64,000 nucleotides of DNA from Ascidiella aspersa (lineage: Eukaryota), in NCBI GenBank assembly GCA_963924565.1, contig OZ004612.1, positions 23,560,001 to 23,624,000 on the forward strand, given 5' to 3'. Under the pieces are notes generated by a model, which made no database searches, was not told where the DNA came from, and was given only the letters and a program-made list of their open reading frames with translations. Positions 1-39,360 of the stretch are shown piece after piece. The position numbers were made by a program, and so were the translations under genes. The stretch's first letter is position 1; the number at the start of each line of letters is the position of its first letter.

Positions 1-3000
1 GCCTGAAGTTCTTGTTCAGAAAGGTGTAGAGAAATGGATTTAGGGCCGAGTTGGCGTAAAGCAGCAAAGTCGAAACCGTTCGAAGCGTCACGCAGCCGCC
101 ACTCTATAGATGTAACAGATTTTGGGGCTCAACCGTAGATAAACATAGAACACACAAAACTATTAACTTAGTGCAACTCTTCTTGCCCTCTGAGTCGGCG
201 TAGGTCAGTCGGTAGTAGAACAATGGTCGAGGTTGTAGGTTCAAGCAAATGGTCGCGGTCGGGAGTTTAAATCTCACCAGTGACGTACGTTTTAGCGGAC
301 AATGCCTTATTTGCCAAGCTTGCCAATATATCCTTATTGACAAGCCGATTTTGCTACTCACCCTAACTTGACGATGCGATGTTTTATTTTATGATACCAA
401 ATTTGCAAATTTGAGAATTCAATAGTCGTATACCAAGGCTTTTAACCAAACTAGCCACAAGAACAAGATTTTAATAGTGACTTTGCCAAATTACACTTTT
501 GAATTCTTGTTTTGATTTGAATGTTCAAATATTTTCCGGAAATAGTTCAAAAAAATATATACCTCATAGCCAGAGCGCGTTTAGCCTATAAATAATAAGC
601 AATTTTTGACAGCTAAACAAGCGACATTTTGAATGAAAATTCCCAAACATTAATGTAGTTTTCTTGTACAACCCCTCATAACCCCTCTTAGTGATGTGTT
701 TAAGTTTGGTGATGTCAAATGGACAATATTCCATCAGATATAGGCTATACCCTTACATTTTTTTTAGCTGTCCTAATAAAAAAAAACTACTTCAACAGTT
801 TAGCCCACGGCCAGAAACAACATTCCCTAATGCGGTACAAAGTTACATTTTGTGTTTGGCTTGCGTGCCGTTGTTGACAGGGCTGCGGAGTACGACTCAG
901 GACTCGAGTAAAACCACGTAAAAGTACCCGAGTCCCGGCGTGGGAATGCGCAGTACCAAAACTTAAAACGATAAGGCCGCCACCTGTAAATTTTAAAGGT
1001 AATAGCACATATGGTGTACATGCTGTAGAGTCAGGGTTGAACCCGGGACTCGACGAAATCGCACATTTAGACGGAATCGGACTCGGGACTCGGTAGTCGG
1101 ACTCGCCTTTTATTTTATTGGCCAGATTCGGGCTCGGGAGTTGGACTCCGGGTATTTTTAGCCGACTCCGCAGACCTATAGTCGCTGGCAATACTGGTGG
1201 TTATATAGATGCCTATATAGCAAGGATTAACGCCAAACTTTTGTTTACCCAAGGGCCGAGTATTTTGTACCGTACCTGAAGGTGAAGTCCCCAGATAGTA
1301 TCCAAGTTCTTAACGTGGTAGGGCAGAAGCAGAAGAAAGAAACTGCTGACCAAAGCGCCGCACATCATCGTAACCCTCTTGCTTTGCTTCAGCTGTTTCG
1401 ATGCCTTTTGTTCGTCGCTTTTGGACGCGTGTTTTTGGGGGTTCCTATTGCTGGAAATTCGTCTTATGATCAGACCGTAGCATAAAATCATAATCTGCAG
1501 GAAAAATTTGGAGCCTGGTGTAACAGTTTAAAATGTACTGGTGAATAAATCAGTGGCGTTTCTATACAGTGATATCGTGTATACCAGGGGTGGGCAAACT
1601 GCGGCTCATCGGCATGTTTTTTGTCGCTCTTCTAGTCGAATCTTAAAAATCCCAAAAAATTCTATAAGCTACCGAGAGTACCGTTTATGAACGTTTCTCT
1701 CTTTCTGTTTTCTTTATTTGGGCCAGCATTTCATTTACGCCGTAACGCTAGACATAGAATCCGAAGAGTTAGTTAACAAAAGACTGCTATTGATAAACAT
1801 TGTGCGTGTTATTTTATCATTACCGTTATTATTATTGTGTTAATTATTACCGTTTTGTTATATTACAACTCTGTTATTATTGCTGAACTTGCATTATTTA
1901 CCCTGTTTTATTGAAATAATTTTGTGGCTCTCTGTTACTTGTATTTTCTGCAAATGGCTCTTCCATTGAATACATTTGCCCACCCCTGGTGTATACCTTT
2001 TGATTAAAAGAATGCACACTCACCGAGAACGGAATCAAATGCATCACGACGAAAGACGTTATGAGGAATGCCTTATACGAGAGTGGATACTGGTCAGCAC
2101 AGGAAACGGTGTCTTGTTGGTCGTTTAGTGCATCCCAATAACTGGAACTTTTAAACAACTTACCATCACGAGAAAGGCAGTAAATAGTTTAAGTCATTCA
2201 ACTTACTTGTCATAATAGTCGGTAATATTGCTGTCATAATTGTATACCTCGTCGGTAGTATTGCTGTCATAAATTTCGCTAGCGATATAGGTTGGTTGTT
2301 CATCGGAAGTATAAGGAAAGTTGTAGCTGAATTAAAAATTTAAATGGTTGTAACTTTTTGTTGTTGTTATATTTACCAAACCCTTTCTTTCGAAATTCAC
2401 CTGAGTTTCTTTTTCAAACCTTCTCTGAAAACAAATTTTAAATGTAAGCCTGCAATTAGACGAAGAAACAGCGTTTGTGTACTGAATAGTCATTAGAAGT
2501 CATTAGAAACGACCAAAACAACTGAAGGCTAAGCGGTGGTCTTCGAACATTTTTATAGATTATCGCAAATTTAAAACATAAAAAATATTCGCACCACACT
2601 TTTATCTTTAAGCTTGATAATCGTCGTAAATATAAGACAAGGCAAAGTAAATAGATTAATGTTGTAATTTTTTTGAAGGATAGTGTGTAATCAAGTCTTG
2701 TGTGTTTGTCATACAAATATTATTTTCCCAAATTAAAAATATGATTTCGCCCCACTTAAAAACTGTTTAGAGCGATCCTAGGCGAAATACGGCCCGTCAA
2801 GCATTTTAATCTGGCCCGCTGTTTATTTTCCCTAAAACATTTTTTATTTAATCCGCCAATTTGACAACGTTTGCTTTTCTATTCCCGCGAACTTTTCTAA
2901 GAAGACGTTTACTATGATCGTATACATACCTGAATCTTACTGGGGTTGGATACAGACATGCCGCCCCAATCTCTTTTTTCTCTGTTTTACCCAAGGCTGC

Positions 3001-6000
3001 GGAGGCGAAGGCGGAGTCGGACTCGGGACTCGAGTAAGAGGATACGAAAAACTACCCGAGTCCCGAGTTTGACGTGCGCGTGCGCATTTTCAAATTTTAT
3101 AACTGTAAATTGTAAAGGTGCAATACCATATACGCTAATTTTTAATTCCTTTTTCGTGTTTCGCCCGATTTATGCTGTCTTGGCAATATTCCCTTTGAAT
3201 CGTAAATAGCACACCTGCAACTCAAAACAAGTTAAATGCATTGTACTTTTAAATGTGCTTCAAGCCAACGTTTTAGGTGTTTTTTGTCAAACTCTGCTGT
3301 TGGGTCAATGGCCAACACAACTAGATAAATTCCAATATATCGAGCATGCGCGTATTTGTTTTTGCGCTTGATGCGTCAAATTCGTGTGCTCACTGAGTTA
3401 AATCTAAATTAATGTTTTCGCGATTTGCTCGACGCCCTGCCGACTTTCTTTAATTTAGATTTCAGTTGCATAATGGCGCTCACCTCGCTACGAAATAGTG
3501 GGTTTTTTAAGCAATGTTGTTTAGCGTCCCATTCTCGCTTAAGTCGTGTCATTTTTCAAAATGTGTTTCAAACAAACATCAATCAGGAATAACCTTTGAT
3601 TCTAACAAGCTTGGCAAAACTATATTTACTTTTTTCCTAAAAACATAACATTTTATAATGGTGTTTATTTGAAACTTATTGACCCGGTCCCCCATAACAC
3701 TTCCTTTTTTTCATGTGGCCCTCTATAAAAAGTGCCACGGCGCACAGTTTGGTAATATAATTATTAAATTAAATGCTAAAGCTATACGTCAATTTTCCAA
3801 AACGAAAGAGTCAAGGCGTTCTTACATGCATTGAGAGAACTCTGACAAAGTGCTGTACAACATAATCGGGATGCAGAAGAAGATACCGCTCGTCCATATT
3901 GCAACCGCGACCCAAACCGAGGTGCTTTTACCTCTAAGGCGCTGAAGAGTATTCGAAAAGGGCCAACACACAGCAATGTAGCGGTCCAGGCTCATGACCT
4001 ACTCGCAAACAAGCATTTGGTTAAGCTCCATATAATTGTTGTACAATGAATTAAGTCAATGACTTGACTTAAATGCACTTAAGTAACTGTTTTCAAATGA
4101 CTTGACTTGACTTAAGTCATTTGGAGTTTAGACAAGTGACTTGACAAATGACTTAAGTTGAAATTAAGTGTTTTCATTTACCATTTTGTTGTAAAATTGA
4201 GCTATTTATCGGAAGTTTTACACATAAAACGATTAGATTGCAATAGCAATGCAGCGTTCAATTGCAAGTTTAAGTAATGAGACAGTTTTCTTTTAAGACA
4301 TGTTTTATGATTTAAATTGTCTTCAATACAAGTATGACCTAAGCTAGTGGTCGGCAAATTTTTTGTCGGGTCCAACAAGCTCTTTCAAGAACTATAAAAT
4401 GCCCACTACGTAAAATGACGTCACAAAGTTATGTCATAAAACACTTTATTCTAAAAAATAGTTTATAGGTCTAGTCTCATTCAATAAAAATTACCCTTTG
4501 TTAAAGTCACACGGCGCAATTAAGATTCGATAGTATGCATAGCGTCTTTGGCCGATGTAATAAAGTAGATAGTTTTTTTTTTTGGGGGGGGGGGGGGTTA
4601 TTGCACGGTGACCCTATATAATGCAAGGATGAGCAAAAATAATAAATAAACTCTTAGCCACACCATTTTTAAACAGTACAGTGAATGCAATGACAAAACT
4701 GCAATGACAAGAATGCAATGCAAAAAAAATATAAAAATAGCCCGCGGCCCACTAAAACTTGCTCAAAGACCCACATTCGGCTTCAGCATTGGAACTAATA
4801 ACAGTTTTGTGTCAGTTGACATACAAAATATAGAGTTACTCATACCGCAAGGAACATCACAGAGGAGAAAAGGTTCAGGTGTTGCAGTGTCTCAACTGTT
4901 TTACAAGAGGAACTCGAGGAAATCCAACGACGATTGATTTTATTGGAAATTTGAAACGGAATCGTAGACAGGAATAAGGTATCAGCAACAGCCAAGTTCA
5001 AAATGTACCTATGCAAGATTGGAAAGCATATCTTCCACTTCAATGTACTTTGTAAACAAAATTAGTAATCGTTTTTACCTGCTTGGGGTCGGCAAACTTT
5101 TCAGCACGTTTTCGACGGGCCGTACTTAAAAAATTACCAATCATTTGTTTGTTAAAGCGTATGTGTTATAAACAGTATGATATAATAACTTTCAATCGGG
5201 CTTTTATAAACCACTTTACGTAAATAAAAAAAGTTTCATTAACATTTAAGAAAACTATAAGACGAGGCTTTGGCGCGAAGCGTAAAAAACGCGTTTAAAA
5301 AACAAAAACGTGTAAGGTTAATTGGCCCTCAGATTTTCTTAATTGGCCCTCATGTTTGTTTTAATAACCATTTTGTAAATCCGTTAAAGTTTTTTATTTT
5401 TATTTCGCTGACATTGCATATTTGAAAATATTAATGTTGCGAGGATCCATCGTCACAAAGAAAAGGTTGTAACACAAACACTTACGGGAAACCCCTTGAA
5501 TTTAATGATTTATCTGTTTTGTTTGTGTTATTTGATGGATTAGGGCCGCTATATTCTCGATGTCATGTCATAAAAAGCACGATAATATACATTTAAATAG
5601 ATTACGTTGGTGTAATCCATTTAAAACTTTTGGCGTCATTACAATTTGGCGCCATTTCTCCAGTATTTGCAGACTGTCGTCATTGTACGTTAGGGCAAGA
5701 TGCGCTTTTCAACGTGACCACTCCTTTGTGTGATTTAGCCTGCATCAGGTTGGCCGTTCTGAGTCTACAACAGAGGTCAGCAACCACGGCCCGCCAATGT
5801 AATTCATCCGGCCCGCCGCTTCATTGACAAACTATAGGCACGAGTCCATTTCAAATATATTTTGACTATTTTAACTATGTAAGTGCGAAACCTTTTCGCG
5901 AATGATCTTTGAACTTCCGGTTCGTTTACGTTTTAAGGCTGTCTATTGAACTAGATCAGCGCTTCTTTATCGCTGCGCTGTGGAAGGCTGTCAAGTGCGT

Positions 6001-6897
6001 CGCGGACAAACAGAAAACGTATTCAAAAATATTGGGCATATCATTTTAATTATTTTTGGCGACGTAACAAAAACTTGCAAAGAAATTTAAAAGAAATGCC
6101 AGAATACCAAAAAAAATTGCGCTTGCTTCGCTCGCCAGGTGCGCCCGGACACAAAATCAACACTGAATAAATATCAAGGTTATCGCGTTTTCTCAAAGTA
6201 CTTTTATTACACCTTTCATTAGAAGTACGGATGACGACGTGTGAACTCAAATTTTAAACAAAAAAACGCTTTTTTTCACGTTTGCGCTAAACTACCTTCT
6301 TAAATGTAATTAAACACGTTTTTAAGTGCCAAAACAGATCCGAGGCCCGCCTGATTAAAAGTTGCTCCAACATTTTATTAACACAATTCTTGCTAGCATT
6401 TTGTGCGGCATGAAGAGACCCTTCTGAATTTGGTTTTGGCCGCTACTAGAAAAAGGTGCCGACCCCTGGTCGACCGTTAAGGTTTTCAAATTTAAGAAAC
6501 ACATTAATAGGGCTATATTGACTAAAAATAACTCTTCGACTAACTGTTTACTCTTACCAGTTGGTAGTGTTCCTTTTAACTTCTCTCAACATCAACATAA
6601 CGACAATAACGATGGCATTTCCGACTAGGCCAATTGCACATATTGAACCGGCGACAGCAACCGTTAACCACGAATCCGAAAAAGTTGCAACTGAAAATAA
6701 AAAACTAAATCGTCCACGTTGAATTTTGCTAGTCAAGCCAATTTTCTTGGTAAGCAAATTTAAAGTTTTTGGTTGCACCTGGTTATTGGTAAATGTTTAA
6801 CAAATTTATATTAAAAAAACTCCGTTTATGTTTTACCTTGGAATTCGCCCGAACCGCTGTAATCAAGCCCAGATGATCCTTCTTGGACAGACGACAT
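1..6897 (-). CDS. Class A (rhodopsin-like) peptide GPCR, somatostatin/opioid/galanin-receptor-like; 3' end lies outside the window
   Basis: Exons (minus): 6897-6837 (ATG), 6690-6558, 5008-4846, 3998-3826, 2326-2207, 2147-2024, 1494-1276, 103-<1. All introns are GT-AG and phases join. Motifs: TM1 IGLVGN, TM2 YILNLAVAD, TM3 Cys then VMSLDRYIAVC, TM4 W, TM5 IP..IMILCY, TM6 FFLLLLPYH, TM7 YANSALNPFLY, helix 8 NFR. Confidence 0.9.
878..1178. mobile_element. MITE, CAGGGCTGCGGAG/GACTCGG family (related copies at ~2992-3130, ~24646-24745, ~45330-45729)
   Basis: Imperfect TIR cagggctgcggag / ctccgcagaccta and internal gactcggg/gagtcgga repeats. Homologous internal sequence is shared with the other copies. 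No clear TSD. Confidence 0.7.
1585..1988. mobile_element. hAT (Buster/Charlie-like) MITE
   Basis: TIR caggggtgggcaaa / tttgcccacccctg with exact 8-bp TSD GTGTATAC. Confidence 0.9.
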
Positions 6898-7212: not shown

Positions 7213-8431
7213 CACTTAAGGTCCGTCCCCTATGGGTAAACAAAAACGTCCGACTCAAGACAGAAACGTTTTATTTAAAGCCACTTATCAATGCGGGAGT
7301 TTTTGACCACAATGATCTACTAAACGACTTGGGACACTATATGACCTATGACCAACTGGCAGTTAAGTACAAATTCCACCCAAACAATATAGATTTTAAA
7401 ACCTTTAGTAAAATGATCGCTGCTCTCCCACCCGAGTGGGACCACTCCACGGTAGGCTCCCCAGCCGATGCTAAGCTAATCACCACTTTAAGGCAAACAT
7501 TTTCAGGTACATAACTCATCAAAAGCTTTATACAATGAGATCAAAACATACACTACTGATCGTCCGCATAAAGAACAACGCAAGTGGGAACGGGATTTAA
7601 ATCTTGTACCGAACACAACTTCTTGGAAATACGCTACAGACAGGTTATATGAAAACACTCGTAAAGCCACAATTGAACTAAACTGCGATCCTTTCAAATT
7701 AAACTTAATCTTCGTGCGATTGTGACCAATGATGCGCTATTCTCTTTTGATATTACTGAAACCAACCGGTGTGTTTTTTGCAACTTAAATGTTAAAACAA
7801 TTTCTCATGTGTTTTTCCATTGCGAACATGTTGCAAAGTTTTGGGAAGAAGTCACTGGTTGGATTTCATCAAAACTTTTTATATCCCTTCAAACCACTCC
7901 AGTAATTGTTCTATTTGGTACTGTAAATGAAAATGATTTGCTAAACTGTGTACTGATTTGCGCTTGCTTTGTGATTTATCGTTGTAAATACGCCAAACTT
8001 GGCCTTCTTTAATGATGTTTAAGAACATGGTAAAAACAGTGAAAAAATCAGAATACCACATTGCGCTAGGAAATAAAAATCTTGGTGATTTTCTATGGGG
8101 CGCCGTTTGGAAAAAAACAAATACGCTTCTACGGACAACTTTTTTGTCCGATTTAGCTTAAATCGGACTGTAAATTTGTCCGATTTAAATTAAATCAGAC
8201 AAAATTTAAATCGGACAAATTTACAGTCCGATTTAAGCTAAATCGGACAAAAAAGTTGTCCGTAGAAGCGTATTTGTTTTTTTCCAAACGGCGCCCCATA
8301 ATTTTCAAGTTAAATGGGCCAGTCTTTAAACGTACACCTGTCGCTTCTTCTTAAGTGCTATCACTCTTTTATCTCTCGTGCGTCTTTTTCTTCCGCCGTG
8401 TAACTTACTCCAAAAAAAAGTCCCAAAAAAA
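7213..8431 (+). mobile_element. 5'-truncated, decayed non-LTR retrotransposon (L1/Tx1-like ORF2 C-terminus with CCHC zinc finger)
   Basis: Frameshifted ORF pieces: PLWVNKNV, RCVFCNLNVKTISHVFFHCEHVAKFW and the end LGDFQVKWASL*. A-rich 3' tail. 16-bp TSD GAAACAGTGTGTTGTT at 7197-7212 and 8432-8447. Confidence 0.88.
8094..8300. mobile_element. Foldback/palindromic MITE inserted into the LINE ORF
   Basis: Near-perfect ~95-bp inverted arms (tatggggcgccgtttgg... / ...ccaaacggcgccccata) with a 6-bp TSD ATTTTC. Removing the element restores the LINE codons GGT GAT TTT CAA GTT AAA TGG. Confidence 0.9.
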
Positions 8432-10167
8432 GAAACAGTGTGTTGTTACAATAGTTCGGCCTGGTCGCCCCGAATCCCATCGTTGACTATTAACATTGCT
8501 GTTACATGAGAGTCATATTTAAAATTGCGTTCAGATCTACGTTAGCTTCGCCAAAAACTCGTTCTGTATCATGACATTATATTTAAAACAGCGCTAAATA
8601 TAGAGTTGTTTTAACTCACCAATACAACAAAGTTGACTAATTATTATTCAACAAATCCTTTATCTTAAGTTTGTATGTTTCTTATAGTTAGCAATGTAAT
8701 TTTAATGCGGAAAAATAGGCGGTATAAAATCGATCATATTAACATGCCCTTTCCCCACCGCCCCAAGAAGTACCTATACTGGATTGTAGTTGATTGTTTC
8801 ATATAAACTTTCAAGAAGCGTATATAGCTGTTAATAATATAGATAACCTTACAAAACATCATTAGTTCGATAACCACGCACACCTATTAACGCTTTTAGA
8901 GTGTTGCATTTAACTCGTATATAGTATGGTTAAAATGATAAGTTCAGTGGAGTATGGAGATGTTTCCAATAAACGCCAATATTGATCCTAGATTTCATAC
9001 AACTACAGTGTTCTTGGCCGTATACTTATGATCTACGAATTAACTCAGTAGCAAATACCAACAACCATGGGTAAAAAACTCTCAGTGTTTTTCTATAGAT
9101 GCATTTTGCCAGTTAGAAAAAAAGGGCCAAGCCCTGAACCAACAAGATGTGCTGACTAACTGGCCAAAGTGCATAAAGTTGGTAAAGTTGCAGCACTGAC
9201 TATTTTAAACGAAAACAAACACAGGAACTCGGCCAATCGAGGTAAAATAATGGACAAAAAAAACAATTGCCAGCTCAGCGCTCTTTCGCGCTCAATTCAA
9301 ACAATAGGGCCTATAGTTGCTTTTCAACAATGCGACCGCAACGTAATTAATTAAAGGCCGAGCAAATTGTTCGCTGGGGAATTTGGATAAGCGACGACTT
9401 CCCCATATTGTTGCCGAGAGTGAGGCTGCATTATTACCCCGGTTGGGTTTCAAAACTTTCCACAATCAATATTGCCTCATGGGCGCAAAAGACTGATTGT
9501 CGGTCGCGGGCCGGTTTTTGGATACCTGAAAGGAACCTTGGCGATAATGGCAAGAAGATTTTGTTTTGTTTTTTAATTTGTTCACAAGTGAAAGGCGGTG
9601 ATATAATAAAAATCGCAATTTTTTTTTCGAAATAAAAAGCGAACAAAATATCCACATGAAAACAATAATACAACGGCAGTTTAGAAATAGAAAATGTGCT
9701 GCAACACAGGGACTTCAAATGCAGCGTTTAGAAAACACCAAAACGCCTTGTAGTGATACAGTATTTGCAGTGACGTAAAAACATGATATTACGCACAAGA
9801 AAATCCGTGCCTAAATGTTTGAAATTTTGTTGTAGAGAAAAATTAGTACAGTTTGGGTTCAGAGACTATAGAGTTACTAATAAAAATTATAAGACGTGCT
9901 TGTTTACAACTATCGGGACATTATGGTACAAGCCAACTATAATCTTGACTGCGTTTTACGAACAAAAGACCAATTGAGTTTTTTTACACCTTTAAGTCGA
10001 TCGATTTGCTTTTCCGGTACAATACTGTTTATGTTTTTACACAATATTAACGATAAAAAAATATACAGCGTGTGTCTGACTTGAATACGATAAACCAGGT
10101 AGGCTAACATCAGCAAGAATATTTCCGCAAAATAAAAAAGTGGATTCGGTTAAAATACAAATTTCCG

Positions 10168-13100
10168 CTAGACGCTGCTCGTGGGTATAACATGACCTGT
10201 GAAAAAAGAAAAGGTTTAAAAGCTAATCTTAACTGTGTAAGCCAATGCAGAGTTCATTAAGATCACACACGGCACTTCGAATATTAGTGTAACACGCGTA
10301 AAACAAGATTCCGTGTAATTATCTATATTACACTTTTCTCGGACAAAGAAAATGCGAGGTTTCGCTGGCTAAGGTTTGACAAGTAACAGGTACTTCATTT
10401 TTCTTAAGATACATGCGAACGTTTCATAAAAGACGCGCTCCAAACTGTTGCGGCGAATGTCAAGTGAATATGCAATTACCTTCATTTCGTTTCAGGCGAG
10501 AGCGATCGACAATGGAAAAGTAAGGGTTGAAAGCAGCATTGATGTAAGCCAGGAAAAACGTGTAGTCGTGTGAGCGTTCGTAGAAGATGCCCTTAAAAAG
10601 TTGCGAAGCATTAACGCTTTTCACAAAACGTAGAACTGTATACAGTACATTTATTTAGTTCGCAAATAATCAGGCTATATTATACCTAACCAGTGCTGTC
10701 AAGCAAGTATCTTAAAACTTTCAAGGGCCAGTTAATATGTAATAAGAAATCTTTTTTTTTTTTTCTGCAAACAAAAAAATCCAAATCTTCCTTAGTTTCC
10801 TACATTAGGTTTATTTGATGTACCGACACAAACAAAGTAGTACACTCTACTCCTAGGCTTAAGTGAGGTGTAGGCTATCCGGACGTAATAATTGTTTCTT
10901 TGGGCTACCATTAACACATAATCCGAAAATCAATTGAACATAAGTTCCTTTGGCAATAAGGTTTGCTTAAGGTATACGTTGGTTGGCTCTGAGAATATAT
11001 ATCAAGATTCTGGAAACTCCAAGAAAGTAAATTCGCAGATGTTGTGTTATTTTGAGTAAACAGTTTACACTGTTAACTGATTAACTGCACGATACTTGAA
11101 GGTTGCCAAAAAAGCAAAAAACAATGCGCAGGAAAAGCGAAAAGTTCTATTTTTAAAAGCACGACGGGAAAATGGCGGGCGCAACTGATGAATAAAAGAG
11201 TGCGAAGCGCTTTGGGCACAACAAGACTATTCATTAAAAATCCTTAATGAGTCAAACGCGGAAGGCGGCGCTTGCTGGGCAATTTGTTAAAGCGTTCCAA
11301 GTTTTCTGCGCATCGAAACTGCTGCAGTGACGATTGCAGCAAGCGGACGACTCCCTAAGTAATTCTGTTTAACGAACACGTAACAGCAAGTATAGGAAAC
11401 ACACAGTTGCTTTCCAGAATGAATTGCTCATTAAGGCAACCGCAGTTTGTGCTGTGCTTTGCAAACAAGGGTTTCGGAATATTTCAACGAACTGAGCGGG
11501 AATTTTCAGTTTCCCCCGTAAACGTACTAAGGATTTTTTAAAGCGTATTTTTCTTTTTATTGAAGTGGTGGCGTAATAATTACTATAGATCAACTAGTTG
11601 ACGTTCACCAATGAATCTGCGAACCACTTTTTGAGAATCTCTAAATACCGACACAACTAATAGTTTTTATTTTAGATTGGTCGCAAAAAGCTCAGACTTT
11701 TCTCTTGTTTGGTAAAATACTACGAATTAGGCGTTTGTGTTGCCCGTAATCAAGCACTTAATTATTAGGTTTGCGGTAATTAAACAAAATGTAAGGAATT
11801 ATAATATTTACTTACAATTGCCTCATTTGTTTTACGCAAGTATAGAATAGCCTAGCCCTATTTGTTTGCCTAGGCCAGGGTGGTTCAAGGTTGAGAGCAT
11901 TGCGGGCCACATAAAGCCGAGAATTAATCTCGCGGGCCACAAATGGTCCGCGGGCCTAGGTTTGGCCCACCCTGGCCTAGGCTATAAGGCGTTTCAATCA
12001 TACAGAAAAAGAAGATATTTTTTGCTATACTTTGTAGGTCAACTTTTAGTTTGCTTGAAGCCAGCTGTATTGCATATAAAAATACTAATTCAGATTTAAA
12101 ATCGAAATGCAAATAACGTAGCAAAATTAGAATCAAACTAGACGTGCTTTTTGTTTCGTTTTTTTTGGCTTTTTGTTTTCAACGCCAAAAAATGCGCATA
12201 GCAGTACTTTGTAATAACAAGTCGGAGTGGCCTCAAAACAGTTCACGAACTGTCACGGAAATCAGCACAACTATAGGCAAAAATAGCATACCTTCTGGTA
12301 GGCGTTGCGAAACTCTATCAGTTGAAAGACATGGAATGCGGAAAAGCAGATGAGCGCCCAGCCTGCAAGGCAAGCCGCAAAACGACCACTTCTTCCTTCT
12401 GACAACTGATCGTCAGATCGATCTCGAACTGAGAGCCCTTTGGCCATTTTCTTGTTTCCAGTACGAGTACGGCACAGTTTAAGACACTTCGCCGAGCAGC
12501 ATAAGGCAATCACCTGGGAAAAACAAGAAGATTACTTAAGAAAGGCATGTTTGTTCATCGAAAATGTGTGATCCCCGATGGTTTTTATTGTGCCAACAAT
12601 CACTAGCCTGAATAAATTTTCTGGTTACAATGTAACTTCGTTTTTGTAGTAATTAGAAAATGTATATGTGACTATTTAGGCTATCGCACACAAATGTGTA
12701 CGTATATAAACCTTGCATAAATTTAGCCCAACGACAAATTAATAAATATTATCCCCATCAATGTTATCCACCATAACATTGAGCCGGAGCCGTATTCAGT
12801 GCCATGGACCCTTAAACTGCTCTTCCAATCGAAATTGCCCCCAGTATGTTTTTAGTTAAGTTAGAAGCACAGAAACCACGTGGAAAGTTAGCGCGAGTAT
12901 AAAAAGCATTTTACAGAACTGTCATTTTACAATTTACAACCAGACGTTTGGGCTTCTGCTGGGCTGAAATTATAATTTTGTAAAAGGTTAAATCATGTCA
13001 AATTTTTAATTACGCCCATTGTGTGATACCTGTGATTTTTGGCAGGTATTTTATGGACCATCGATCTAATTAATCATTTTCTTGCGGAACCTCTGACGTT

Positions 13101-16100
13101 CCTCCAATAAACACTTTATTGAGTTCCGATGAACACCGGTACAAATTCACTGGCTTAAATTTAACCAGTAAATCAAACCTCTACAGTACACTCACCATGA
13201 AACATCCAATGAACGATCCGACCGACAAAAGGACGTAAGTCAGTGCCGCCATCCGCTGCGAAACCATCTTTTGACAGACGACGATCAAGCAGACGATCAC
13301 AAGTCCAGCTATCCAAGTTGCGGAAGAAACGACGTATTCGGAGACACCGCATCGCAAGTATTTCCAGGTTCCTGTTACAATTGCCTGCATACAGATTCAA
13401 TTTAGTGAATTATTTGAATTTTGTTGCTACATTTAAACAATAGCAGAATACTCTTGCAAAGCTATAATAATTCGGGTCAGACAGTTTTTTATAGCTTGGG
13501 TTAAGGTGATTTCCATTATCACATATTCGGTGCAACATTTAAACCAAATGGTAAAAAACGGAACCTATACGCAGGGCCGGATTAAGGGTACTGTAGGCCT
13601 AAGGCTATTTACCAGGGAAGGGCCTAATTTTGGAATCAAAGCTACAAAAAGTAGTAAAAATACATACATGAAATTGAAATTATTTATTGCAAAATAACAC
13701 AAACATAATATAAGAACATGTAATAAATATAATTAAGTGTCAACTCATAGTATAGGGTGAGATGTGGGACCAGTGGGTCACTTTTGACGTTTTTGCATCT
13801 GCAGGTTTTATTTGTGTCGTAAAATAGGATTTAGAGGTCGTAAAGTGAAGTTTAATCTACCCTTCAACATACCACAGTATTTAACTCTAAATTTAAGAAG
13901 ATAAAAAGTGTTTTTTTGGACTCCGCCGAGGTATTTTTTGTATTGGACTCTGTTATGTCACTACATACTCCGAGATGATTCCTAGATTTCTATTTTAATA
14001 ATGCGTTAAATTATTTGCCAAATACGATGTGCATAACCTAGCTGAATATTTGCCTAACAGTTGACCTTGACTAACCCCGTGGCATACCTTGCGCGTTTCA
14101 CGATGGAATGATCTTTTGCAAGTTCTTTAAGGAAATTGGAAATTTATGCACCAGGCATTAGAAGTTAGTTGCTTGCCCACCAGCATTTGACGGAAAAGAT
14201 TAGGCGAATGTTATCGTCAAGTAATTGGCTGCCCGAAAAAACGCTGACGCCGCACTACACGTCTACATATATAAAGCAGCACAGTAATTCGTTCGCCACA
14301 GCGACAGGCCTTGGTCTGGCGCAAACGCTAGCGTCGACCAGTTCACACTTGAAGGGTTGTCAGCGTTAAGCAAATTTCCTTGCTCCGAGCCGAAAGCGTC
14401 AAATGTGAACAGTTCCAACTTCCGCAACCGAAATTTTAAAACATTAACGCCAGACGCGTCTAGTATGAACGAACCTTATGAATGATATCATAGACATTCA
14501 AACCTCTAACAAAATCACTATCTCTGCTCGAAAAGGACCCCAGCCATAAGACCGAAATAAGAATAACATGAACGTCGCAATAAAACACACTTCTGAATAA
14601 GACCAAAATAGGACCAATAACTAATAGTCGTAGTACCGTCTAAATTGAAAATTGAAGTCTAAAACCCGGCAGAATGAGACCTAAATGGCCAGAATCAGGC
14701 CTAAACAACATCACTAACTCCCCTAATCATTTTAGCCCCTACCCATTTTCTAAACCCCACCCACCGATAACCCCAAACAGCGCCAAAAATCCAATGCAAA
14801 AACAGCGGCGCTCTAAAGGCCGGTCAAACTAAGGCGTCCAAACGTCGACACCCAAACGGCCCATGCCAAACCTAACACAGTGGCCGATCGAGACATACCC
14901 TTTACCTGCAGTTTCAGGCATTTTTTTTGCCATTTAGGCAATATTGCGATGAAAACGTATTTTGACAGATTTAGGTCTTATTCAAACGATTTTGATTTTA
15001 TTCTGTACTGGGCGGTAACTTGCGTATTTAGCTTATTATGTCATTGGTCTTAATGCTATGAGTTCATAGATTTTTCTGCTTTAGGTATTGTTGCTTTTTA
15101 AGTTTTATTGTGTGTTCCCTTTAAAAGTGATAGCACAGAACGTTACATAGTTCCTAACTCGTTTGCAGCATCGATGAAACGATAAGGCACATGTTGACTC
15201 GACTCAGTCATTCGTTTTTAAGCAAAAACCGTACTGTACCGGTACTGGATCTGTAGCACTATCAGCCTTACAAAAATTTAACCTTAAAAAATTGAGGGCC
15301 GAGTTTTTCCAGGGCCTAAGGCTATAGACTTATTAGCCTATTGGTTAGTCCGGCCCTGCCTATACGAATAGGATATCCCACGTATTTGCCATTTGTATCT
15401 GGGATAGGGGCATCATTTGCGATTTGATGTAGAGCAAATCAAAGGTAAATATATCAAAAGAAGTAGATTTATAACTGGAAACAACTAAACTTGTTGACGT
15501 CTAAGCAAAATTCGGCCTAATAGCCACGTAAAAAAACCTTTGGACTTTATTGAATCGCGATTTTTACATATAGTTATTCCTACAAGTCAGCGAGACCAGT
15601 TATAGCCAAAACATGTAATAAATCGCAAACTTTGACGTCCTACCGTCACGAAAACAACAGTGCAGAGATGGTCGATGAACAGCACAACGTCCTGAGCCAA
15701 ACAGGCGTTTTGCGAGGGCGCTACGTCACCGCTGGTCCACAAAGTGTCGAAGAGGAACAGTGGAAATGTCAGCAGGAACAACCCGTTGACTACAGCCAGG
15801 CTAAATGCGTACCTGTAATTGAAACAAAGCTTTGTCGGTTATATTTAGGACTTACTTGACTATTTGTGAATTAATCGTGGAAGAATATTTGTTTGAAACA
15901 ACCGGTGGGCACTTTAATTAACACCGGGTGACTTTAATCATCACCACGTAATAACTTAGCTAACAATATATCTAAAGGTAGGGGTGAAGTCGAATATTTT
16001 CATCAACAAAACGCATAATATACAATTTCAGAGATGACGTTATAAAGTTACGTCATAACAGCACGTCTAAAACAAATAGGCTAACTCTACGAAACCTGGG

Positions 16101-18319
16101 GTTATCGTTCGGGCTCGTGCAAAAATATGAAACTAAAATCTTAGTGTAAATACAGCCAAGGAGATGGCGGAATGGCCCAGTGAAAATAGGACATGTCTTG
16201 GTGACAAAAATAACATTGCTTTAATAATTATTTTACAGGTTCACCGTTTCGTCTTACGCTCACCACTGACTCAGTTGTCAACACGTAAACTCTAAGAAAA
16301 GATTAAGTTTTTAACAAAAATATTTCGGTTGTTGATTTATAGGGATTAATTTCGCTTTGTTATTCTACAATTTTGGGTTCAACGTTGCAGAATGTGTGGC
16401 GTACATTCAGGGAGGGACTAAGGTTTTCATGGACCTGGGGCTGTATGCTAGTCAGAGGCCTATTGGACTATTTACATTCTGTTTATTATTCCTACCACAA
16501 TTACTTAAAATAACATTGATTTATTCTCTTATGAACCAGATTCAATTAATATGTTTTATAGCTTTAGAATTTAGACAAGGCAAAGCTTGTCTTCGCATAG
16601 TATAGCTTCATGTTGTGAAGTAACAAACACGCACTGACGTCACAAGCTTATGGTCGAAAATATAAAAATAACATGATGAATATTTACTCTAACTACAGAA
16701 ACTATCTGGTATCAGAGGTGATATTGGATTACAACTTGACAGTTTTTTTTCAAAAAGATAACTTAAGTTGTTGCGGTGGGCCTATTTTTTTGGTGGGCCT
16801 GGGGCTGCAGCCCCCTCAGCCCCCGCCTTAATCCGCCCCTGCGTACATTACTAACTAAACGAAATATGGCATACCCTCGTCGTTTGCTAAACGAAGCGGT
16901 GGCTATATTTCCAACAAGGCCGATCAGAAGTAGGAGGATCGAAACTGATGTTGTGATCCAGTTGATTTGCAACTGTTGGGGTTTAAGAGTTACGTGTGTT
17001 GCAGTTGTTTCTACGACTGTAGATGTTGTTGTTGTTGTTGTTGTTTGGATGTCTGTTCCGTTCATCGGTTCACCTATAATGCGATAATTTAAACAGATGG
17101 TTTGGGTGACCGATTTTGGGTTTTGTTTAGATCGCAATAAAATGCAAACGCATACATCCGCTTAAGAAAGAAAAACCCACGCACACAATCCTGTACCATT
17201 TGCATTTCATCTCATTTTGCTAACAAATTTGATTCTGTTTCGGAAATATTAAAAAAACGGATTAATTTTAAAATCTGTAGAAATGTCTATATTGATACAA
17301 TGTTTGACTGGCGCCGATTCCATCGAGGTATTAAATGATAAAAATGCAATAATAATAGTTGGGTGTTAATCAGCGTTCCATATATCTGTTAAGGGTAAAT
17401 ATTCGATTATTATGGGACATTCTAAAAGGTATTAAGTGTACAATACCCATTCAAACCTTGTTTGCGTTGTTGAACATTGTCTTTCAAGCATGTCATTAAG
17501 AGATTTATAGGCTACTGTCTTTTCAAACATGTAATTAAAATCTAAAGGTTTGAAAATAAACGTTTAAATCCTGTATTTTTCATTTTGTTGGCATAAGCTC
17601 TATTCAGTTACAACTTATATGCAACTGAACATCGTTTCTCGGTTTCTTTTCATTGAGGCACATTTACGACATTAAAAAAACAAGTTATAAGGTTGTATGT
17701 AAAACGCGATTTTGTCAGTTGAAAACGGTGTTAATCTTATAGGCCGGGTTAATACTTTCATGTAAGGCACCAAATTCCGTCACAACGCTTCGAAATTTAA
17801 AGGCTTGAAAGCATGCGGAAGTAATAAGGCGTCCATTCAAGACCGCTCTCTCGAATATTGGAGTAATTTATGACTTCTTGCCGCACGCCAGTACTGCAAT
17901 AATATATCCAAGACCGCAAATGCCATAGCCTAGATGTGATGAAGGTTTCACCTTGTTGGAAAATGCCACGAACTACAGTTTTGCGACACATAAGTGTAAT
18001 GTGCGGTATTTCACCTATTCCACTATTTGCGCTTAACACAATAATGCCAATGCGTAATGCCTCAAAAGAGCTCTATTACAAGCTTCAATTATCACCTATC
18101 AGTTTTACAGCTAAAAATGAAACAACAACATAATATAAAACTACCAATTTTGTGAATTCTACATCAAACTCTAAAACGCAACATCTTATCGCGAAAGGAT
18201 CAAACCGATTAATATACATGGAAAGGCTTACTTGTCACATTTGAAGGTACATCTTGGTCCAAAGGATCGACGAAATCCAATGGATTGATGTCGGCAAAAT
18301 TGTAGTAAAAGTAACTCAT
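10168..18319 (-). CDS. Divergent/atypical class A GPCR (~335 aa), tandem paralog of the neighbouring peptide receptor
   Basis: Exons (minus): 18319-18232 (ATG), 17073-16875, 15812-15644, 13384-13196, 12513-12292, 10591-10480, 10196-10168 (TAG); 1008 nt, all GT-AG, phases consistent. Seven hydrophobic segments, including TM1 IGLVGN, TM2 YAFSLAVVN, TM3 Cys, TM4 W and TM7 LAYINAAFNPYF. Confidence 0.82.
11876..11974. mobile_element. Short hAT MITE
   Basis: Termini cagggtgg / ccaccctg with exact 8-bp TSD GCCTAGGC. Confidence 0.8.
13572..15358. mobile_element. Non-autonomous hAT element (1.8 kb, probably with nested insertions) in a GPCR intron
   Basis: TIR cagggccggattaa / ttagtccggccctg, subterminal ggcctaaggcta repeats and exact 8-bp TSD CCTATACG. 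Confidence 0.85.
16408..16841. mobile_element. hAT MITE
   Basis: Imperfect TIR cagggagggactaagg / ccttaatccgcccctg with exact 8-bp TSD CGTACATT. Confidence 0.85.
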
Positions 18320-18532
18320 CGCGGCTTTTTGTTTCGATCTACTGTGTCAGTTAACATAAGCTTCCACCAAACGCCTGTTTTTAAAGGGCCGTCAAAAGGA
18401 CATGGTTAGTTGGTTACACATAGTGAGTCAAGCCATGCCGCTCAGCATTCTGGCAACAAACTCACCCCTTTGCTACGAGACACATGCATAACACGTAAAC
18501 AAATTCGCGTCTGTCTGCACTGAAATATTTCA

Positions 18533-18843
18533 ACAACAGAGACCGCAATTCGGACTCGTAATTTTTTCAATCCCAAAGCGGAGGGCTTAACAACTGATTT
18601 GGTTCGAGCTGCGTTTATCTGCGTTAGCGCACGTCTGTGTGTCAACCGCTGCTTTACATCTTTTTCCGATTTTACGACTGTTTCCAACAATAAAGACTCG
18701 CTGAAGATTCGGACTCCCAATTTTTACCAATCCAAAAGCGGAGGGCTAAACAACTGTCTTATAGTTCGAACTGCGTTTATCTGCGTTAGCGCACGTCTGT
18801 GTGCTAACCGCTGCTTTCCTTTTTATTGATTTTACGACTGTTC
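18533..18843. repeat. Tandem duplication of a ~155-bp unit
   Basis: Two adjacent copies (~18533-18685 and ~18686-18843) share attcggactc...aaagcggagggct.aacaactg...gttcga.ctgcgtttatctgcgttagcgcacgtctgtgtg...gattttacgactgtt. Confidence 0.85.
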
Positions 18844-28200: not shown

Positions 28201-31200
28201 CATTGTCAGTGCAAGCTTAATTTATGTCATCAACATCTTTATAAAATGTTTAACTATACTGTAATTCAGTATTTCCCAACCTTTTTCAGTTTGCGAACCC
28301 CCTTTTTTATTGTGCGACCCACAATGAGATATGACTAAACGAATAAAAAACAAATTAATGAGGAAATAAGATTAGCATTTACATAAAACCTGTATCTTTA
28401 CTGACATTTAGAAAATGCTTCGCGACCCATCAGAAATAGCTTCGCGACCCACCATTGGATCGCGACCCACTGGTTGGGAAGCACTGCTGTAATTGGATAA
28501 CCTACTATTCTGAGCAATAGTTTGAATAGCATAATATGCAAACCTATATCATACAGCAAACAAACTGTTACCTTGCAAAAAACTCAATTTTACCGAAAAA
28601 CTCTTTAGTGAAAAAACACTCAACTTTTTGCCATAATATTTCAGTTATATATTTTTCAAGATATTTTAGTTTTCATTGACGCAGCACTATATTTGCAATG
28701 AGCCTATTTCTGGCTTTTTTTTTTTTTGCTTTATTTTTGCATGAAAAAACACGTCTTTTTCTGATAATTATCCATATTTTCTGTGAAATATTCAAACATA
28801 ATTTTTGTTATGTAAAACAACTGAGAATGACCATTTTTTTAAGAAAACGAAACTGTTCGATGTTTATTGGTTTAATTTTTGTTAGGGGTTCCAATTGATT
28901 CCAGTCTAATGAGGCTATGTTTATGCGTGCTGCGCATAAATTTTGGAATGCAATGGGATAGCGTTGTCGTGCCAGATTTCCAAAGTGCGATCGTTTGCAA
29001 GACTTGTTTTTAAGCGGCCTCGTTAAGTAAATTAGGTTCGTGTGCAAGTTTTGTCACGTGGCAATCAGCGTTGCATTGGCTATTAGCTGAAGAAAGCGTA
29101 TTGTCAGCACGTGTCAGTTTTCCTAAACGGCCATAGCGACGGTACGTTACGCATTTGATTACGCGCCAAATCGTGCACTGACGCACTTTTCGTTATGCAA
29201 CGCAAAAAGTCCTTTGCCTGATGCGGTGGTTTCCAAAGTTTTGTGATTCGTTGTTTTTTGGAGAACAGCTTTCCACGCGTAGTCCGAGCTTATCGAAAAT
29301 ATGTATAGAGATTAGGATATTATCGTTAGTCGTTTCTTTTTTTCTATATTATCGTACGTTATTTTTGGCTCGTAAAATAGTAAACGAAAAGAAGCTTGAG
29401 TGAAATTTAAATGATTTTAACCTCATTAGATTCGTCTAAGGCAGGTCTCCAACCTATGGGTCGCGAACCCATATGGGGTCACGAAAGGCCTTTTATAACG
29501 CCGCAATCTCTAAAAAATTCCTGCTGTTTGAATGGTTTCATTGCGTTAGAGGTTTAAAAGAACGCAATGAGTATATCAAAAATGTTAAAACAAATTAACA
29601 ATTCGTGTTTCACGCGTTGGCGTTATAAACATATGCTAATTTTTACTTCTGATTTGGTAACACATGTTTAGCCAAATTTATCAGAAGCATATTAATTATT
29701 ATCAATCGCTCGTGTAATTCACTGTCAGCATTATTTAAATAAGGTTTGGTTAATTAGGGTTGGTTAATAAACAGCTTGGAGACCACTCGTCGAAAGCCTA
29801 AGGTCTCACAAAGGGGCATCCTAAAACCTCCGTTTAATTCCCTCTATCGACTTATACTGGAGATAAATGGGACATAAAGTTAAGTAAGATTCAAAAATAT
29901 AAAGGTATCCATGAGACTAAACAATTACTAGTAAAAACTCTTACTGTAAAGTGGCACCCTTGTGTAGTCGGAATACTTGCACGAGCCCACAACTTTATTG
30001 ACGGGTCTGTCAATGGGATAAGGTCGTTTGATCCCGACTACCCCAGGCGAAAATTGTATTGCAGTTGTCCTTGGTGTTGCTCTTGTGGTTACCAAAACAT
30101 TTCTGTTTGTTTCCGCTAAGGTTGTTGGCAAAGTTGCCTTTATTGTACTGGATCTTGGTTGTTGTGTAGTTTTTTCTGAAGTTGTTGGGAGAGTAGCTTC
30201 TTCTGTAGTTGTTAAATCTGTTTCTGTTGTAGTTGCTACATATGGTTGTTCTGTAGCGGCTAAAATTCCTTCTTCTGTAAATGCTACATATGGTGTTTCA
30301 GTAGTCGTTGACATTTTTTCTGTAGTTGCTACGTATGGAAATTCTGTAGTCGATGTAATTTTTTCTGTAGTTGTTACATACGGTAATTCTGTGGTCGTTA
30401 AAGTAATTTTCTCTGTAATTGCTACGTATGGCACTTCTCTGGTCGTCACGAATGGTTCTCTAGTGGTTGTTGCAATGGTTTCTTCAATGTTTGTTGCAAG
30501 AGTGTTTGCTATATTTGGTGCTATTCGCTCCCCTGGAGCCGTTGTTGATGTTGCTGGCAATAACGCAAGTGGACAAACAATGGTCGTTTTGATATCTGTT
30601 TCGAAGATGGCGAATGATGTAACCGCTGATGCCCTAAAGAGAATGGATCTTACTTCCACTATTTGCTTATGTTAGTATATAGTTACTATTTATATGTGTT
30701 TTATTATTTGGCTGTAAAATTAACATACACACTTGCAATACACTAGCCATACCATAAAGCAGGGGTGTCCAACTCAAACATGCCGACGTGCCAATTTTTA
30801 TCTTATAACTTCTTCCCGTGCCAAAATTTAGCAACTTTTTTTTTTCTAATGTTAAATGCGGTTTTATACAAAAAATAAAAACAGTATAGTGTTATAATAT
30901 CAGAAGTAATTGTTTGTTGTCGTAATTTGCTGGGATTGTTTTGTATTGTGAATAAACAATGACAATTGGCTGTATAACAAATTTAGCTTTTTCGGCAATT
31001 GGCGAAATAACAAATTAAGTATTTTTGGTGGGCTAGCGTGCTATTTTTTATTAGGTCGCGTGCCACATTTGGCACGCGTGTCTCATATTGGACACCCCTG
31101 CCATAAAGCATACATACTACATATCAGCCTTCTATGACGTATTCTGGATTGCATGTAATTAGAAAAGCTTTGTTTATACAAGCAAAGGAATGTAGAAACG

Positions 31201-32318
31201 ATTGATACAAAAATTATTTTACTTAGCCTTTAACAACTTCAATGTATGCACTGAACTATAACTCAGACAAGAATATGGCACTAAATTTTGTTTTCGGGGC
31301 ACATAATTCCCAGGTTGTTTTACAATGTCAAGTCGACGAGGTTCCTTTTCTAACAGACGCTTAACAATGTCAGAAATCGCACTTACATAACTGTCAGATT
31401 TTCGCTGCAAGGCCCTGGCGGCGACTTCCACCTAGCAGTCACCGTTCTTCGTGCTACTTTGCCGTTTGAGTGCGTAAAAGCGCTGTCGGTTTTGCTGAAG
31501 CAATCTATCAGCTTGTAATTGGGCGGGGGATCCACAAAATTGCCAACCGTTGATCCACTGCTGTCACGAACTTGGATAAAGATGCCTTTGATTTCCTCGA
31601 CTCCAGCCACCGTGACTGCGATATTAGCGAACATGTTAAATTTGTGTCCAGAATTCCAAAAGTTGTTCGGGATGGTTAAATTCAAAAATCAAAAGTCTGT
31701 CATAACCGACGATATTTTGAAAATTAATGCTGTATTTGTGTCACAAGAAGTACACCGGTGAAATGAGCACGGTTGTGCAAAAGCTTGTGACAATTTCAAT
31801 ACAATTTGTAAAAAAACAAATTTGCCACCTGATTTCCAGACTTAGAAATGGAAAATTAAGGCTATCAACAAAGATTAAGGCTATCATAAAAGAGAATAAA
31901 AAAGTACGCATTGACACTAAACACTCAATAAATTATATATATTTTTTTCGTTAACATAAATAATTTTAAAACAATTGAAACTATTATTTTAACATTGTGT
32001 GGGCTATTTCGGAACATTTACGAAAATAACAAAAATTTGCCTTGATTGAAACCAATTAAAAAAATTAATTTCAACACGGTTAAACACTTTTCGGCTGGTT
32101 GCTCACGATTTTACACTTTGCTAAAGAAAATATTACTTACTTAGGTATAGGTCGTTCATTGGGGCCACCGCGATAGAGAACCCCAGCTTTTGCGGTTTGT
32201 GGCCCTCCTCTATGTGTCCCGAAGGTTCCATCGATCGGCAGGCGGCTAGCGGGGCACCGGTTCTGTAGGCCGACGCTGCTTTTACGGCGATCACAAGTAA
32301 CAGGCCGGCAACCAGCAT
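25256..32318 (-). CDS. Secreted protein (~533 aa): signal peptide, Reeler domain, Thr-rich mucin-like repeats and a C-terminal MAM-like domain
   Basis: Exons (minus): 32318-32141 (MLVAGLLLVIAVKAASA-YRTGAPLAACRSMEPSGH), 31615-31387 (KGIFIQVR...GNF...KLIDC...AFTHS...TARWKSP), 30633-29945, 27890-27738, 26841-26609 (GNYH...CFCVHLSY...LTV...W), 25375-25256 (IRIVATKG...GIVDVDNLYIIQGMC...TGA). Phases join over 1602 nt. The donor at 29945 is the least certain site. Confidence 0.8.
26125..26517. mobile_element. hAT MITE (CAGTGGCGTAGC family)
   Basis: TIR cagtggcgtagc / gctacgcctatg with TSD CATAATTG/CATAGTTG. Confidence 0.8.
28267..28486. mobile_element. hAT MITE (cgcgaccc repeats)
   Basis: TIR cagtatttcccaacc / ggttgggaagcactg with exact 8-bp TSD CTGTAATT. 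Confidence 0.88.
30200..30480 (-). repeat. Coding minisatellite encoding mucin-like TTE-x-PYV-x-TT repeats
   Basis: About five degenerate 16-17 aa units (PYVAITEK, PYVTTTEK, PYVATTEK, PYVAFTEE, PYVATTTE). Confidence 0.85.
30760..31100. mobile_element. hAT (Buster-like) MITE
   Basis: TIR caggggtgtccaa / ttggacacccctg with exact 8-bp TSD CCATAAAG. Confidence 0.9.
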
Positions 32319-32674
32319 TTTGAGCAACAAGGAGATTTGCAGCAGTGTATAGATTAAACCTAAAACAATTACTTAGTTAGACTTTTATAGTTGCTACCGC
32401 CGTTAACATTTGGTTGCAAGAGCTTTTTGTCGACCTTTAAGTTGCCAAGTCTTGTTATCAACATTTTAGTTGCCAAGTCTTTTTATTGTATAGTCTTTTG
32501 ACCCTTTACGTTGGAACGAGTACACAGAACATTTCTGGTTGTCTGTTGCGGCACGTATTTCTGAAGCTAAAATGTTTTTGCAATAAGGTTTGACTGTTTT
32601 ACTAAACAAGTTGTTTCGTAACCCTCACACTATGCAGCAAAACAATATATCACAATACTGTCAGTTATCTAATG

Positions 32675-39200: not shown

Positions 39201-39360
39201 TAACCATGATTATATTTCTTTCCGGTTTTCTCAAGTCTTGATTTGTATGGTGCAGGCCAACCCAAAATTATAAATTTTAATAAGTTCATTAATATTTCTA
39301 GGTGTCTTAATGTCTTAATTGTATGTTTCTGCTAAACAACCACTGGTTAAAATTTTCAAA

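Follow-up and report, generated by a model that had tools for sequence, protein, structure and literature searches.

G-protein-coupled receptors (GPCRs) that have lost their coupling have reportedly been described mostly in chemokine and complement systems of vertebrates. The human complement receptor C5aR2 has been reported to act as a decoy and in heterodimers (PMC5494583). In the ascidian Ciona, Ci-GnRHR4 neither binds a ligand nor signals; as a heterodimer, however, it retunes its paralogs R1 and R2. GPR50-MT1 provides a further precedent for heteromer modulation (PMC3744054), and GPR88 one for a modulator (PMC7012601). Here we describe a receptor gene from the ascidian Ascidiella aspersa, located in a stretch of 64,000 nucleotides of contig OZ004612.1 (G000:C6:23560001-23624000, hereafter the window). 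It is the last of six genes in a tandem cluster, the other five of which encode canonical receptors, and its product, which we call the divergent receptor, has probably lost G-protein coupling.

The coding sequence (CDS) consists of seven predicted exons on the minus strand, from 18319 to 10168 (Table 1), and comprises 1008 nt, encoding 335 amino acids followed by a TAG stop. As proposed in the initial annotation of the locus, the open reading frame (ORF) contains neither stops nor frameshifts, and all six introns are of the GT-AG type. Eight AGs between 10720 and 10500 were tested for exon 6, and 10591 is the sole acceptor open in phase 0; an acceptor at AG 10635 was dropped, as an in-frame stop results. 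The sequence features listed in that annotation, i.e., LAVVN, GTW, CFSAFH, NPYFS, an eight-residue link between transmembrane helices (TM) 4 and 5, and N-glycosylation sequons, are all present.

Ballesteros-Weinstein numbers were assigned by anchors on 15 relatives, comprising four of the five paralogs and 11 database proteins. We excluded paralog C (99% identical to paralog B), P0010, on which the anchors failed, and four models that were partial or redundant. The TM5 register of the divergent receptor is based on a shared intron position. The divergent receptor retains only two of 12 activation-switch positions (N7.49 and P7.50), compared with 10-12 in the 15 relatives, among which the miss of paralog A at 5.50 is a register artefact of joining. 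D2.50, D3.49, R3.50, Y3.51, P5.50, Y5.58, F6.44, W6.48, P6.50, and Y7.53 are lost, and the protein lacks the canonical motif set of G-protein-coupled class A receptors. By contrast, G1.46, G1.49, N1.50, L2.46, A2.47, P2.58, C3.25, F3.33, F3.42, W4.50, H6.52, N7.45, N7.49, and P7.50 are kept. Other class A exons in the genome have D2.50 in all seven TM2 exons and Asp-Arg in all five cases seen. The suggested change of SLDRY to VTGTW is right insofar as neither Asp nor Arg occupies 3.49-3.50 in either register, but VTGTW is only one of two registers: because 11 residues are gone and the remaining seven fit the post-DRY segment equally well or better, substitution and deletion of DRY are not separable. 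The D2.50N change is paired with N3.35D. In the delta-opioid receptor structure and in CXCR4 simulations, these two positions take part in sodium coordination (PMC6037435), and the two changes may represent a compensatory swap.

Besides these substitutions, the divergent receptor is shortened on both faces. Compared with seven full-length relatives, the spacing between 1.50 and 2.50 is 20 instead of 29, exon 2 encoding nine residues fewer than the family at the TM1 end and intracellular loop (ICL) 1. The spacing between 3.50 and 4.50 is 18 instead of 29, with 11 residues missing at the TM3 end and ICL2, a main G-alpha contact surface. Between 4.50 and 5.50 the spacing is 37 instead of 108-266, with nearly all of extracellular loop (ECL) 2 gone, and the tail past P7.50 has 23 residues instead of 81-127. 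The ICL1 and ICL2 deletions, the short C-tail and N3.35D had escaped the initial annotation, whose inference that the receptor is not G-protein coupled is strengthened by the two loop deletions. We consider loss of coupling probable because R3.50, Y5.58, Y7.53, and the greater part of ICL2 have been lost jointly. An extra ECL2 exon, named there as a finding that would speak against it, was not encountered: TM4 and TM5 lie within one exon, and thus such an exon cannot be spliced in; furthermore, the family profile revealed no hidden family-like DRY or ECL2 exon among the 960 ORFs of 9500-30000. Two intron-3 ORFs considered as hidden exons, at 14263-14475 and about 14900, sit in repeat DNA. In the family, ECL2 is very long, variable, rich in Thr, Ser, Gly and acidic residues, and encoded on separate exons (4.50-5.50 spacing up to 266; paralog D, L011:6508-7807; P0004, P0013, P0017). 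The single exon 4 of the divergent receptor corresponds to three exons and two ECL2 introns in the neighbouring paralog E.

A neofunctionalised receptor whose signalling through G proteins persists in a non-canonical or constitutive form, with a new ligand in a wide-open pocket, appears somewhat unlikely in the light of these losses, although receptors without individual motifs do signal. Equid herpesvirus ORF74 signals with DTW (PMC3405870), MrgD couples to Gi with an eight-residue ECL2 and without W6.48 (PMC9287403), and melanocortin receptors couple to G proteins with a three-residue ECL2 (PMC10390531). The Ciona YFV receptors, in whose sequences, as far as they are visible in Dataset S3, we could make out no DRY or NPxxY, gave nanomolar Ca2+ responses to peptides as Galpha16 fusions (PMC6475428). 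In the divergent receptor, ICL3 has the usual length and contains 11 basic residues, and R6.32 is retained. However, MrgD retains R3.50 and Y7.53 (PMC9287403), whereas the divergent receptor has lost both, together with Y5.58 and the 11 residues at the TM3 end and ICL2.

At the level of sequence, the protein is homologous to class A GPCRs and has seven hydrophobic segments with N-out topology. Six Kyte-Doolittle peaks exceed 1.5, the TM7 mean of 1.03 lies within the family range of 0.49-1.18, and the hydropathy of all seven helices is within or above that of the family. The charge pattern, with basic ICLs and tail and an acidic N-terminus, fits the same orientation. From hydropathy, positive-inside charges and the N-terminal sequons we infer a seven-transmembrane (7TM) fold that is delivered to the cell surface. 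A single-sequence fold of the relative P0011 was uninformative, with a predicted local distance difference test (pLDDT) value of 51. The C-terminal S-S-V fits the class I PDZ-ligand consensus, which is suggestive at most.

Homology, shared introns and location in the cluster link the divergent receptor to its neighbours, while the large acidic ECL2 of the family is absent. Its identity to the paralogs is 21-25%. Against a five-paralog profile it scored 20.6 bits, whereas the maxima were 13.0 for 500 shuffles and 9.4 for 500 ten-residue local shuffles, and phmmer matched it to 16 of 16 family proteins with E-values of 1.9e-10 to 1.7e-4 in a small database. P2.58, INW, LFLLT, FHV, and LAY are segments that match the family, and exon 3 is the best-conserved exon (family profile E 6.6e-5 among the 960 ORFs). 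Five intron positions with their phases, N-terminal, in ICL1, mid-TM3, mid-TM5, and in ECL3, are common to the divergent receptor and the paralogs; the two ECL2 introns of the neighbour are missing, and the phase of the last intron is unlike that of paralog D. In a Pfam scan of single exons none of five exons matched 7tm_1, compared with four of four in the neighbour, three of these above the curated cut-off. The tree assigns the divergent receptor a branch of 4.55 substitutions/site, as opposed to 0.03-1.27 in relatives, and does not allow its placement within the family. On its sequence, it is a highly diverged duplicate from an ascidian somatostatin/opioid-like receptor cluster with large-ECL2 parents.

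As to the family itself, a TM2-TM3 profile retrieved 16 database proteins, 13 of these being assigned by name to Ciona, Phallusia or Clavelina; over TM2-TM3, the 16 share 72-85% identity with paralog D. For a Phallusia member, the best solved relatives were opioid and somatostatin receptors (60 of 60 among the matches listed). P0008 is XP_018672649, which corresponds to Ciona R2 in PMC7565592. That article calls the family 'putative C3a/C5aR' (Ciona R2-R4, Botryllus R1) and reports expression of the Botryllus member in morula immunocytes; 'somatostatin receptor type 2-like' is also in use. An identification of the cluster as the Ciona C3a receptor was ruled out, the characterised Ciona C3aR (R1, CAI84650.1) being a different, distant sequence in the alignment of PMC7565592. 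Since this receptor is a different sequence and the solved relatives are opioid and somatostatin receptors, C3a is not established as a ligand of the family.

The gene appears to have been maintained. When its CDS was subjected to neutral substitution, 117, 21, 1, 0, and 0 of 1000 runs were stop-free at 90, 80, 60, 40, and 25% identity, respectively. All length changes keep the frame. Nucleotide identity to paralog D over 118 helix codons is 0.50/0.63/0.36 by codon position, the values at positions 1 and 2 being inflated by picking the codon registers on conserved anchors. Judged from the CDS, selection has acted for the greater part of the gene's existence, but not necessarily up to the present. 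In the RNA run X3, of which about 6% was read, depth in the single-copy bins with the 3' untranslated region (UTR), exons 7 and 6, and exon 1 was 2.27, 5.61, 1.71, and 1.87, and it was zero in the single-copy intron bins 11107-11723 and 17277-17893 and the intergenic bin 8639-9255. If the RNA is confined to exons, depth would be about 10x at exon 6, 2.6x at exon 5, and 1.3x at exon 3. First mates in the exon bins lie on the plus strand only, which in most stranded libraries means minus-strand RNA. The DNA run X1 is identical to the assembly and may be its source; run X2 shows 1-4 differences and no gaps in contigs over exons 2, 3, 5, and 6. Homology above shuffles, the neutral simulation and strand-specific RNA bear out the earlier description of a maintained receptor.

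Ortholog searches were performed with single exons and had low power, so that a blank does not show absence. Exon 5 yielded no ortholog among 13 candidates from the 5.8-billion set, and the two matches of exon 4 among 1.84 billion representatives were both tandem-repeat artefacts. In the ESM Atlas, exon 4 had no match and exon 3 generic ones only (an unnamed cluster at 0.91; 7tm_1 fragments below 0.9). A metagenome scan gave, among the matches listed, one antisense to a bacterial gene and no ortholog, and searches of the genome itself with exons 2-6 returned the gene and two chance matches. No report of an atypical or DRY-less tunicate GPCR of this kind was found in the literature outside subscription papers (including Melillo 2006). 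Ciona has 23 'Other Rhodopsins', and divergent orphans are common there (PMC2396169).

The long branch, the blank exon-level ortholog searches and the missing Pfam match would all suit a long-relaxed duplicate whose function was recently lost or whose product is misfolded, i.e., a transcribed pseudogene in waiting. We regard this as improbable: neither disabling stops or frameshifts nor neutral decay was seen, and the low number of stop-free runs even at 90% identity means that any death of the gene would be recent. In-frame length changes, five preserved intron phases, the gap-free contigs of the second DNA sample and the presence of RNA also argue against decay.

Two explanations that accept the loss of coupling differ in what the extracellular side is expected to do. 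In the first, the divergent receptor would be an uncoupled decoy or ligand-presenting receptor similar to ACKR1 or C5aR2. It would bind the family's ligand, of peptide or anaphylatoxin type, by means of an open pocket and an N-terminus that is acidic and glycosylated and carries Tyr. The N-terminus comprises 66 residues with 14 Thr, 6 Asp, 3 Tyr, and sequons at residues 27 and 34. Its description as Tyr/Asp/Thr-rich is apt for Thr and the sequons, but acidic, Tyr-bearing N-termini are also found in the canonical relatives P0009 and P0016. C5aR2 makes use of sulfated Tyr at its N-terminus, and its DRY, ICL3 and NPxxY deviate from those of C5aR1 (PMC5494583). Among pocket residues, F3.33, F6.51, H6.52, and Y7.43 are identical and E3.29D and E2.63D conservative; the divergent receptor differs from paralog D at K2.60, H6.55, and K/R6.58. 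In canonical paralogs E and B the intracellular half is better conserved than the extracellular half (p=0.008 and 0.021), an excess that the divergent receptor has lost. On the other side, vertebrate decoys diverge mostly intracellularly (PMC3405870), whereas the divergent receptor kept 13 of 52 extracellular and 20 of 63 intracellular conserved columns (p=0.54), in a single-sequence test cruder than that published for vertebrate decoys. ECL2, described as the ligand-binding loop of the family by analogy to C3aR (PMC7565592), is deleted, and the 20-residue tail offers only four Ser/Thr for arrestin recruitment. No ligand of the family was found in the literature examined, and the family signature was seen in none of nine deorphanised Ciona receptors (PMC6475428, Dataset S3, in which eight of the nine sequences are only partly visible). 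The decoy or scavenger role put forward initially draws no support from the pocket-side test and appears somewhat unlikely.

The second explanation, which we tentatively favour, is that the divergent receptor may be a G-protein-uncoupled modulator of its paralogs. Two findings favour it over a decoy: the ECL2 of the family has been lost, and conservation in the extracellular half does not surpass that in the intracellular half. Retaining seven hydrophobic segments but lacking DRY, Y5.58, Y7.53, most of ICL2, and the large ECL2, the protein would not activate G proteins. It might instead act as a partner in the membrane, forming heteromers with co-expressed canonical paralogs and thereby changing how these signal or traffic. 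Loss of the TM5 and TM6 prolines may produce a rigid, inactive-like bundle, and D2.50N/N3.35D would keep one acid in the polar network of the sodium site. A heterodimer modulator was also among the roles first suggested, and it would have an ascidian precedent in Ci-GnRHR4 (PMC3744054). A more far-reaching version, which we hold unlikely, is an independently evolved 'pseudo-receptor' of an invertebrate chordate, comparable among GPCRs to a pseudokinase. This minimal seven-helix bundle, shortened on its two faces at ICL1, ICL2, ECL2 and the C-tail, would be fixed in an inactive state by proline loss in TM5 and TM6 and held together by the reciprocal D2.50N/N3.35D swap; it would bind neither agonist nor G protein and be kept only to regulate its siblings. 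To any other role we assign a very slight chance.

Several observations weigh against an uncoupled modulator, in addition to the signalling receptors without individual motifs mentioned above. Although ten of 12 switch positions are gone, as the annotated joint loss of motifs implies, this does not exceed background loss at conserved columns (2/12 versus 31/103 kept, p=0.50), so that a 'concerted' loss is not shown statistically. In paralog E, switches are kept at 11/12 versus 67/111 (p=0.054), and a fair statement is that the switches of the divergent receptor no longer seem to have the extra conservation seen in relatives. The annotated loss of CWxP and the TM6 proline relative to the neighbour applies to P6.50A, but the neighbour itself lacks W6.48 and reads LLLP without CWxP, C6.47 is present in the divergent receptor, and four of the 15 canonical relatives have L or T at 6.50. 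Co-expression with the neighbour, proposed as a check, finds no support in X3, the one RNA run, which has zero reads in two single-copy exon bins of adjacent paralog E. RNA depth at exon 3 is low compared with exon 6, and the full-length exon chain is predicted. No ortholog was found in the exon-level searches. Finally, a model of the isolated exon-4 peptide forms one continuous helix without a TM4-TM5 hairpin, a weak single-sequence result (predicted template modelling score 0.43).

Table 1. Coordinates of the divergent receptor gene and its cluster (window positions unless given in Mb).
Feature	Position	Strand	Remarks
Canonical cluster paralogs (five)	23.480 Mb; 23.50, 23.52, 23.55, 23.56 Mb	+ (23.480 Mb); - (others)	G000:C6
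Gene E, adjoining canonical paralog	1..6690	-	DRY, NPxxY, D2.50, large two-exon ECL2; runs past window start
Exon 1	18232..18319	-	Start codon, acidic/Tyr N-terminus, first N-glycosylation sequon; minus-sense RNA, bin 17894-18500
Exon 2	16875..17073	-	Thr-rich stalk, second sequon, TM1 with G1.49/N1.50
Exon 3	15644..15812	-	TM2 (D2.50N, P2.58 kept), ECL1 Trp, C3.25, TM3 to 3.44 (N3.35D)
Exon 4	13196..13384	-	TM3 end without DRY, short ICL2 region, TM4 (W4.50), 8-residue ECL2, TM5 first half
Exon 5	12292..12513	-	TM5 end (Y5.58C), basic ICL3, TM6 (F6.44A, W6.48F, P6.50A; F6.51-H6.52-V6.53 kept)
Exon 6	10480..10591	-	ECL3, TM7 (N7.45, N7.49, P7.50 kept; Y7.53S), C-tail start
Exon 7, coding part	10168..10196	-	Final residues and TAG; tail end S-S-V
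Likely 3' UTR	9560..10167	-	ATTAAA at 9577; minus-sense RNA in single-copy bins 9256-10489; 3' end approximate

Beyond gene E, four further paralogs occupy G000:C6:23.480-23.552 Mb. The likely first coding exon of gene E lies, by eye, near 6890-6830. This gene is itself fast-evolving (branch 1.27; 39-44% identity to the other paralogs) and carries W6.48L and an altered pocket side, with DRY and NPxxY intact. The proteins of paralogs B and C (G000:C6:23499283-23506757 and 23515498-23522974; L013-L016) are 99% identical, pointing to either a tandem duplication of very recent date or a duplicate introduced by the assembly. Two more family members with canonical TM2 motifs are located outside the cluster (L031, G000:C4:1334166-1337324; L032, G000:C5:402421-405579). 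About 230 bp upstream of the start codon of the divergent receptor, a tandem repeat at 18548-18842 contains 1.8 copies of a 162-bp unit with 86% match, possibly a promoter duplication. A perfect 98-bp inverted repeat with an 11-nt spacer at 8094-8300 resembles a miniature inverted-repeat transposable element, and contigs of both DNA runs contain a joint that skips 8088-8302. The remainder of the window includes a Reeler-domain gene with a Thr-rich, mucin-like exon (29928-32372, minus strand), the SNRNP200/Brr2 helicase gene, nearly whole in one open frame of 1995 codons (56815-63907, plus strand), and a multi-exon membrane-protein gene (39319-44132, plus strand), which we take to resemble GPR137/TM7SF1; its first exon has no Pfam match, and the gene is a useful synteny marker.

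If an uncoupled modulator is the correct reading, the divergent receptor would be an invertebrate parallel to the vertebrate atypical receptors. A maintained uncoupled receptor would then have arisen separately in an ascidian opioid/somatostatin-related cluster, which would make duplication followed by uncoupling a general route. Together with its five canonical siblings, the gene provides a natural experiment on the capabilities of a 7TM bundle devoid of switches, and on whether the sodium site survives when its acid is shifted from 2.50 to 3.35.

In its working, the divergent receptor would resemble C5aR2, ACKR1 or Ci-GnRHR4, provided that the inference holds; it is a member of none of these families. 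With the ascidian large-ECL2 somatostatin/opioid-like receptors, its parent family, it shares five intron positions and core residues, but it lacks their large ECL2, DRY, Y5.58, Y7.53, and long C-tail. Human C5aR2 (C5L2) is likewise a tandem neighbour of a signalling paralog with altered DRY and NPxxY and an acidic, Tyr-bearing N-terminus (PMC5494583). C5aR2, however, keeps similar ligand-binding regions and binds C5a, whereas the divergent receptor is far less similar to its paralogs, lacks ECL2 and parts of ICL1 and ICL2, and has a separate origin. ACKR1/DARC, ACKR2, and CCRL2 also combine degraded DRY, Y5.58, CWxP, and NPxxY sites with long branches (PMC3405870). The divergent receptor shares with such atypical receptors the altered DRY and other activation motifs, but stems from another lineage than the chemokine receptors and shows no intracellular bias in its divergence. 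A Halocynthia roretzi protein, 'R' (S88.g02174.01; PMC7565592 Fig. S2), belongs to the same broad family and also has no DRY and an altered NPxxY, but it looks dissimilar by eye and has retained CWxP, a complete ICL1, and a large ECL2. Ciona GnRHR4 and the mammalian GPR50 and GPR88 are, like the divergent receptor, lineage-specific orphan paralogs beside signalling paralogs, and the proposed mode of action is alike (PMC3744054, PMC7012601), although GnRHR4 belongs to a different receptor family and GPR88 itself couples to Gi/o (PMC7012601).

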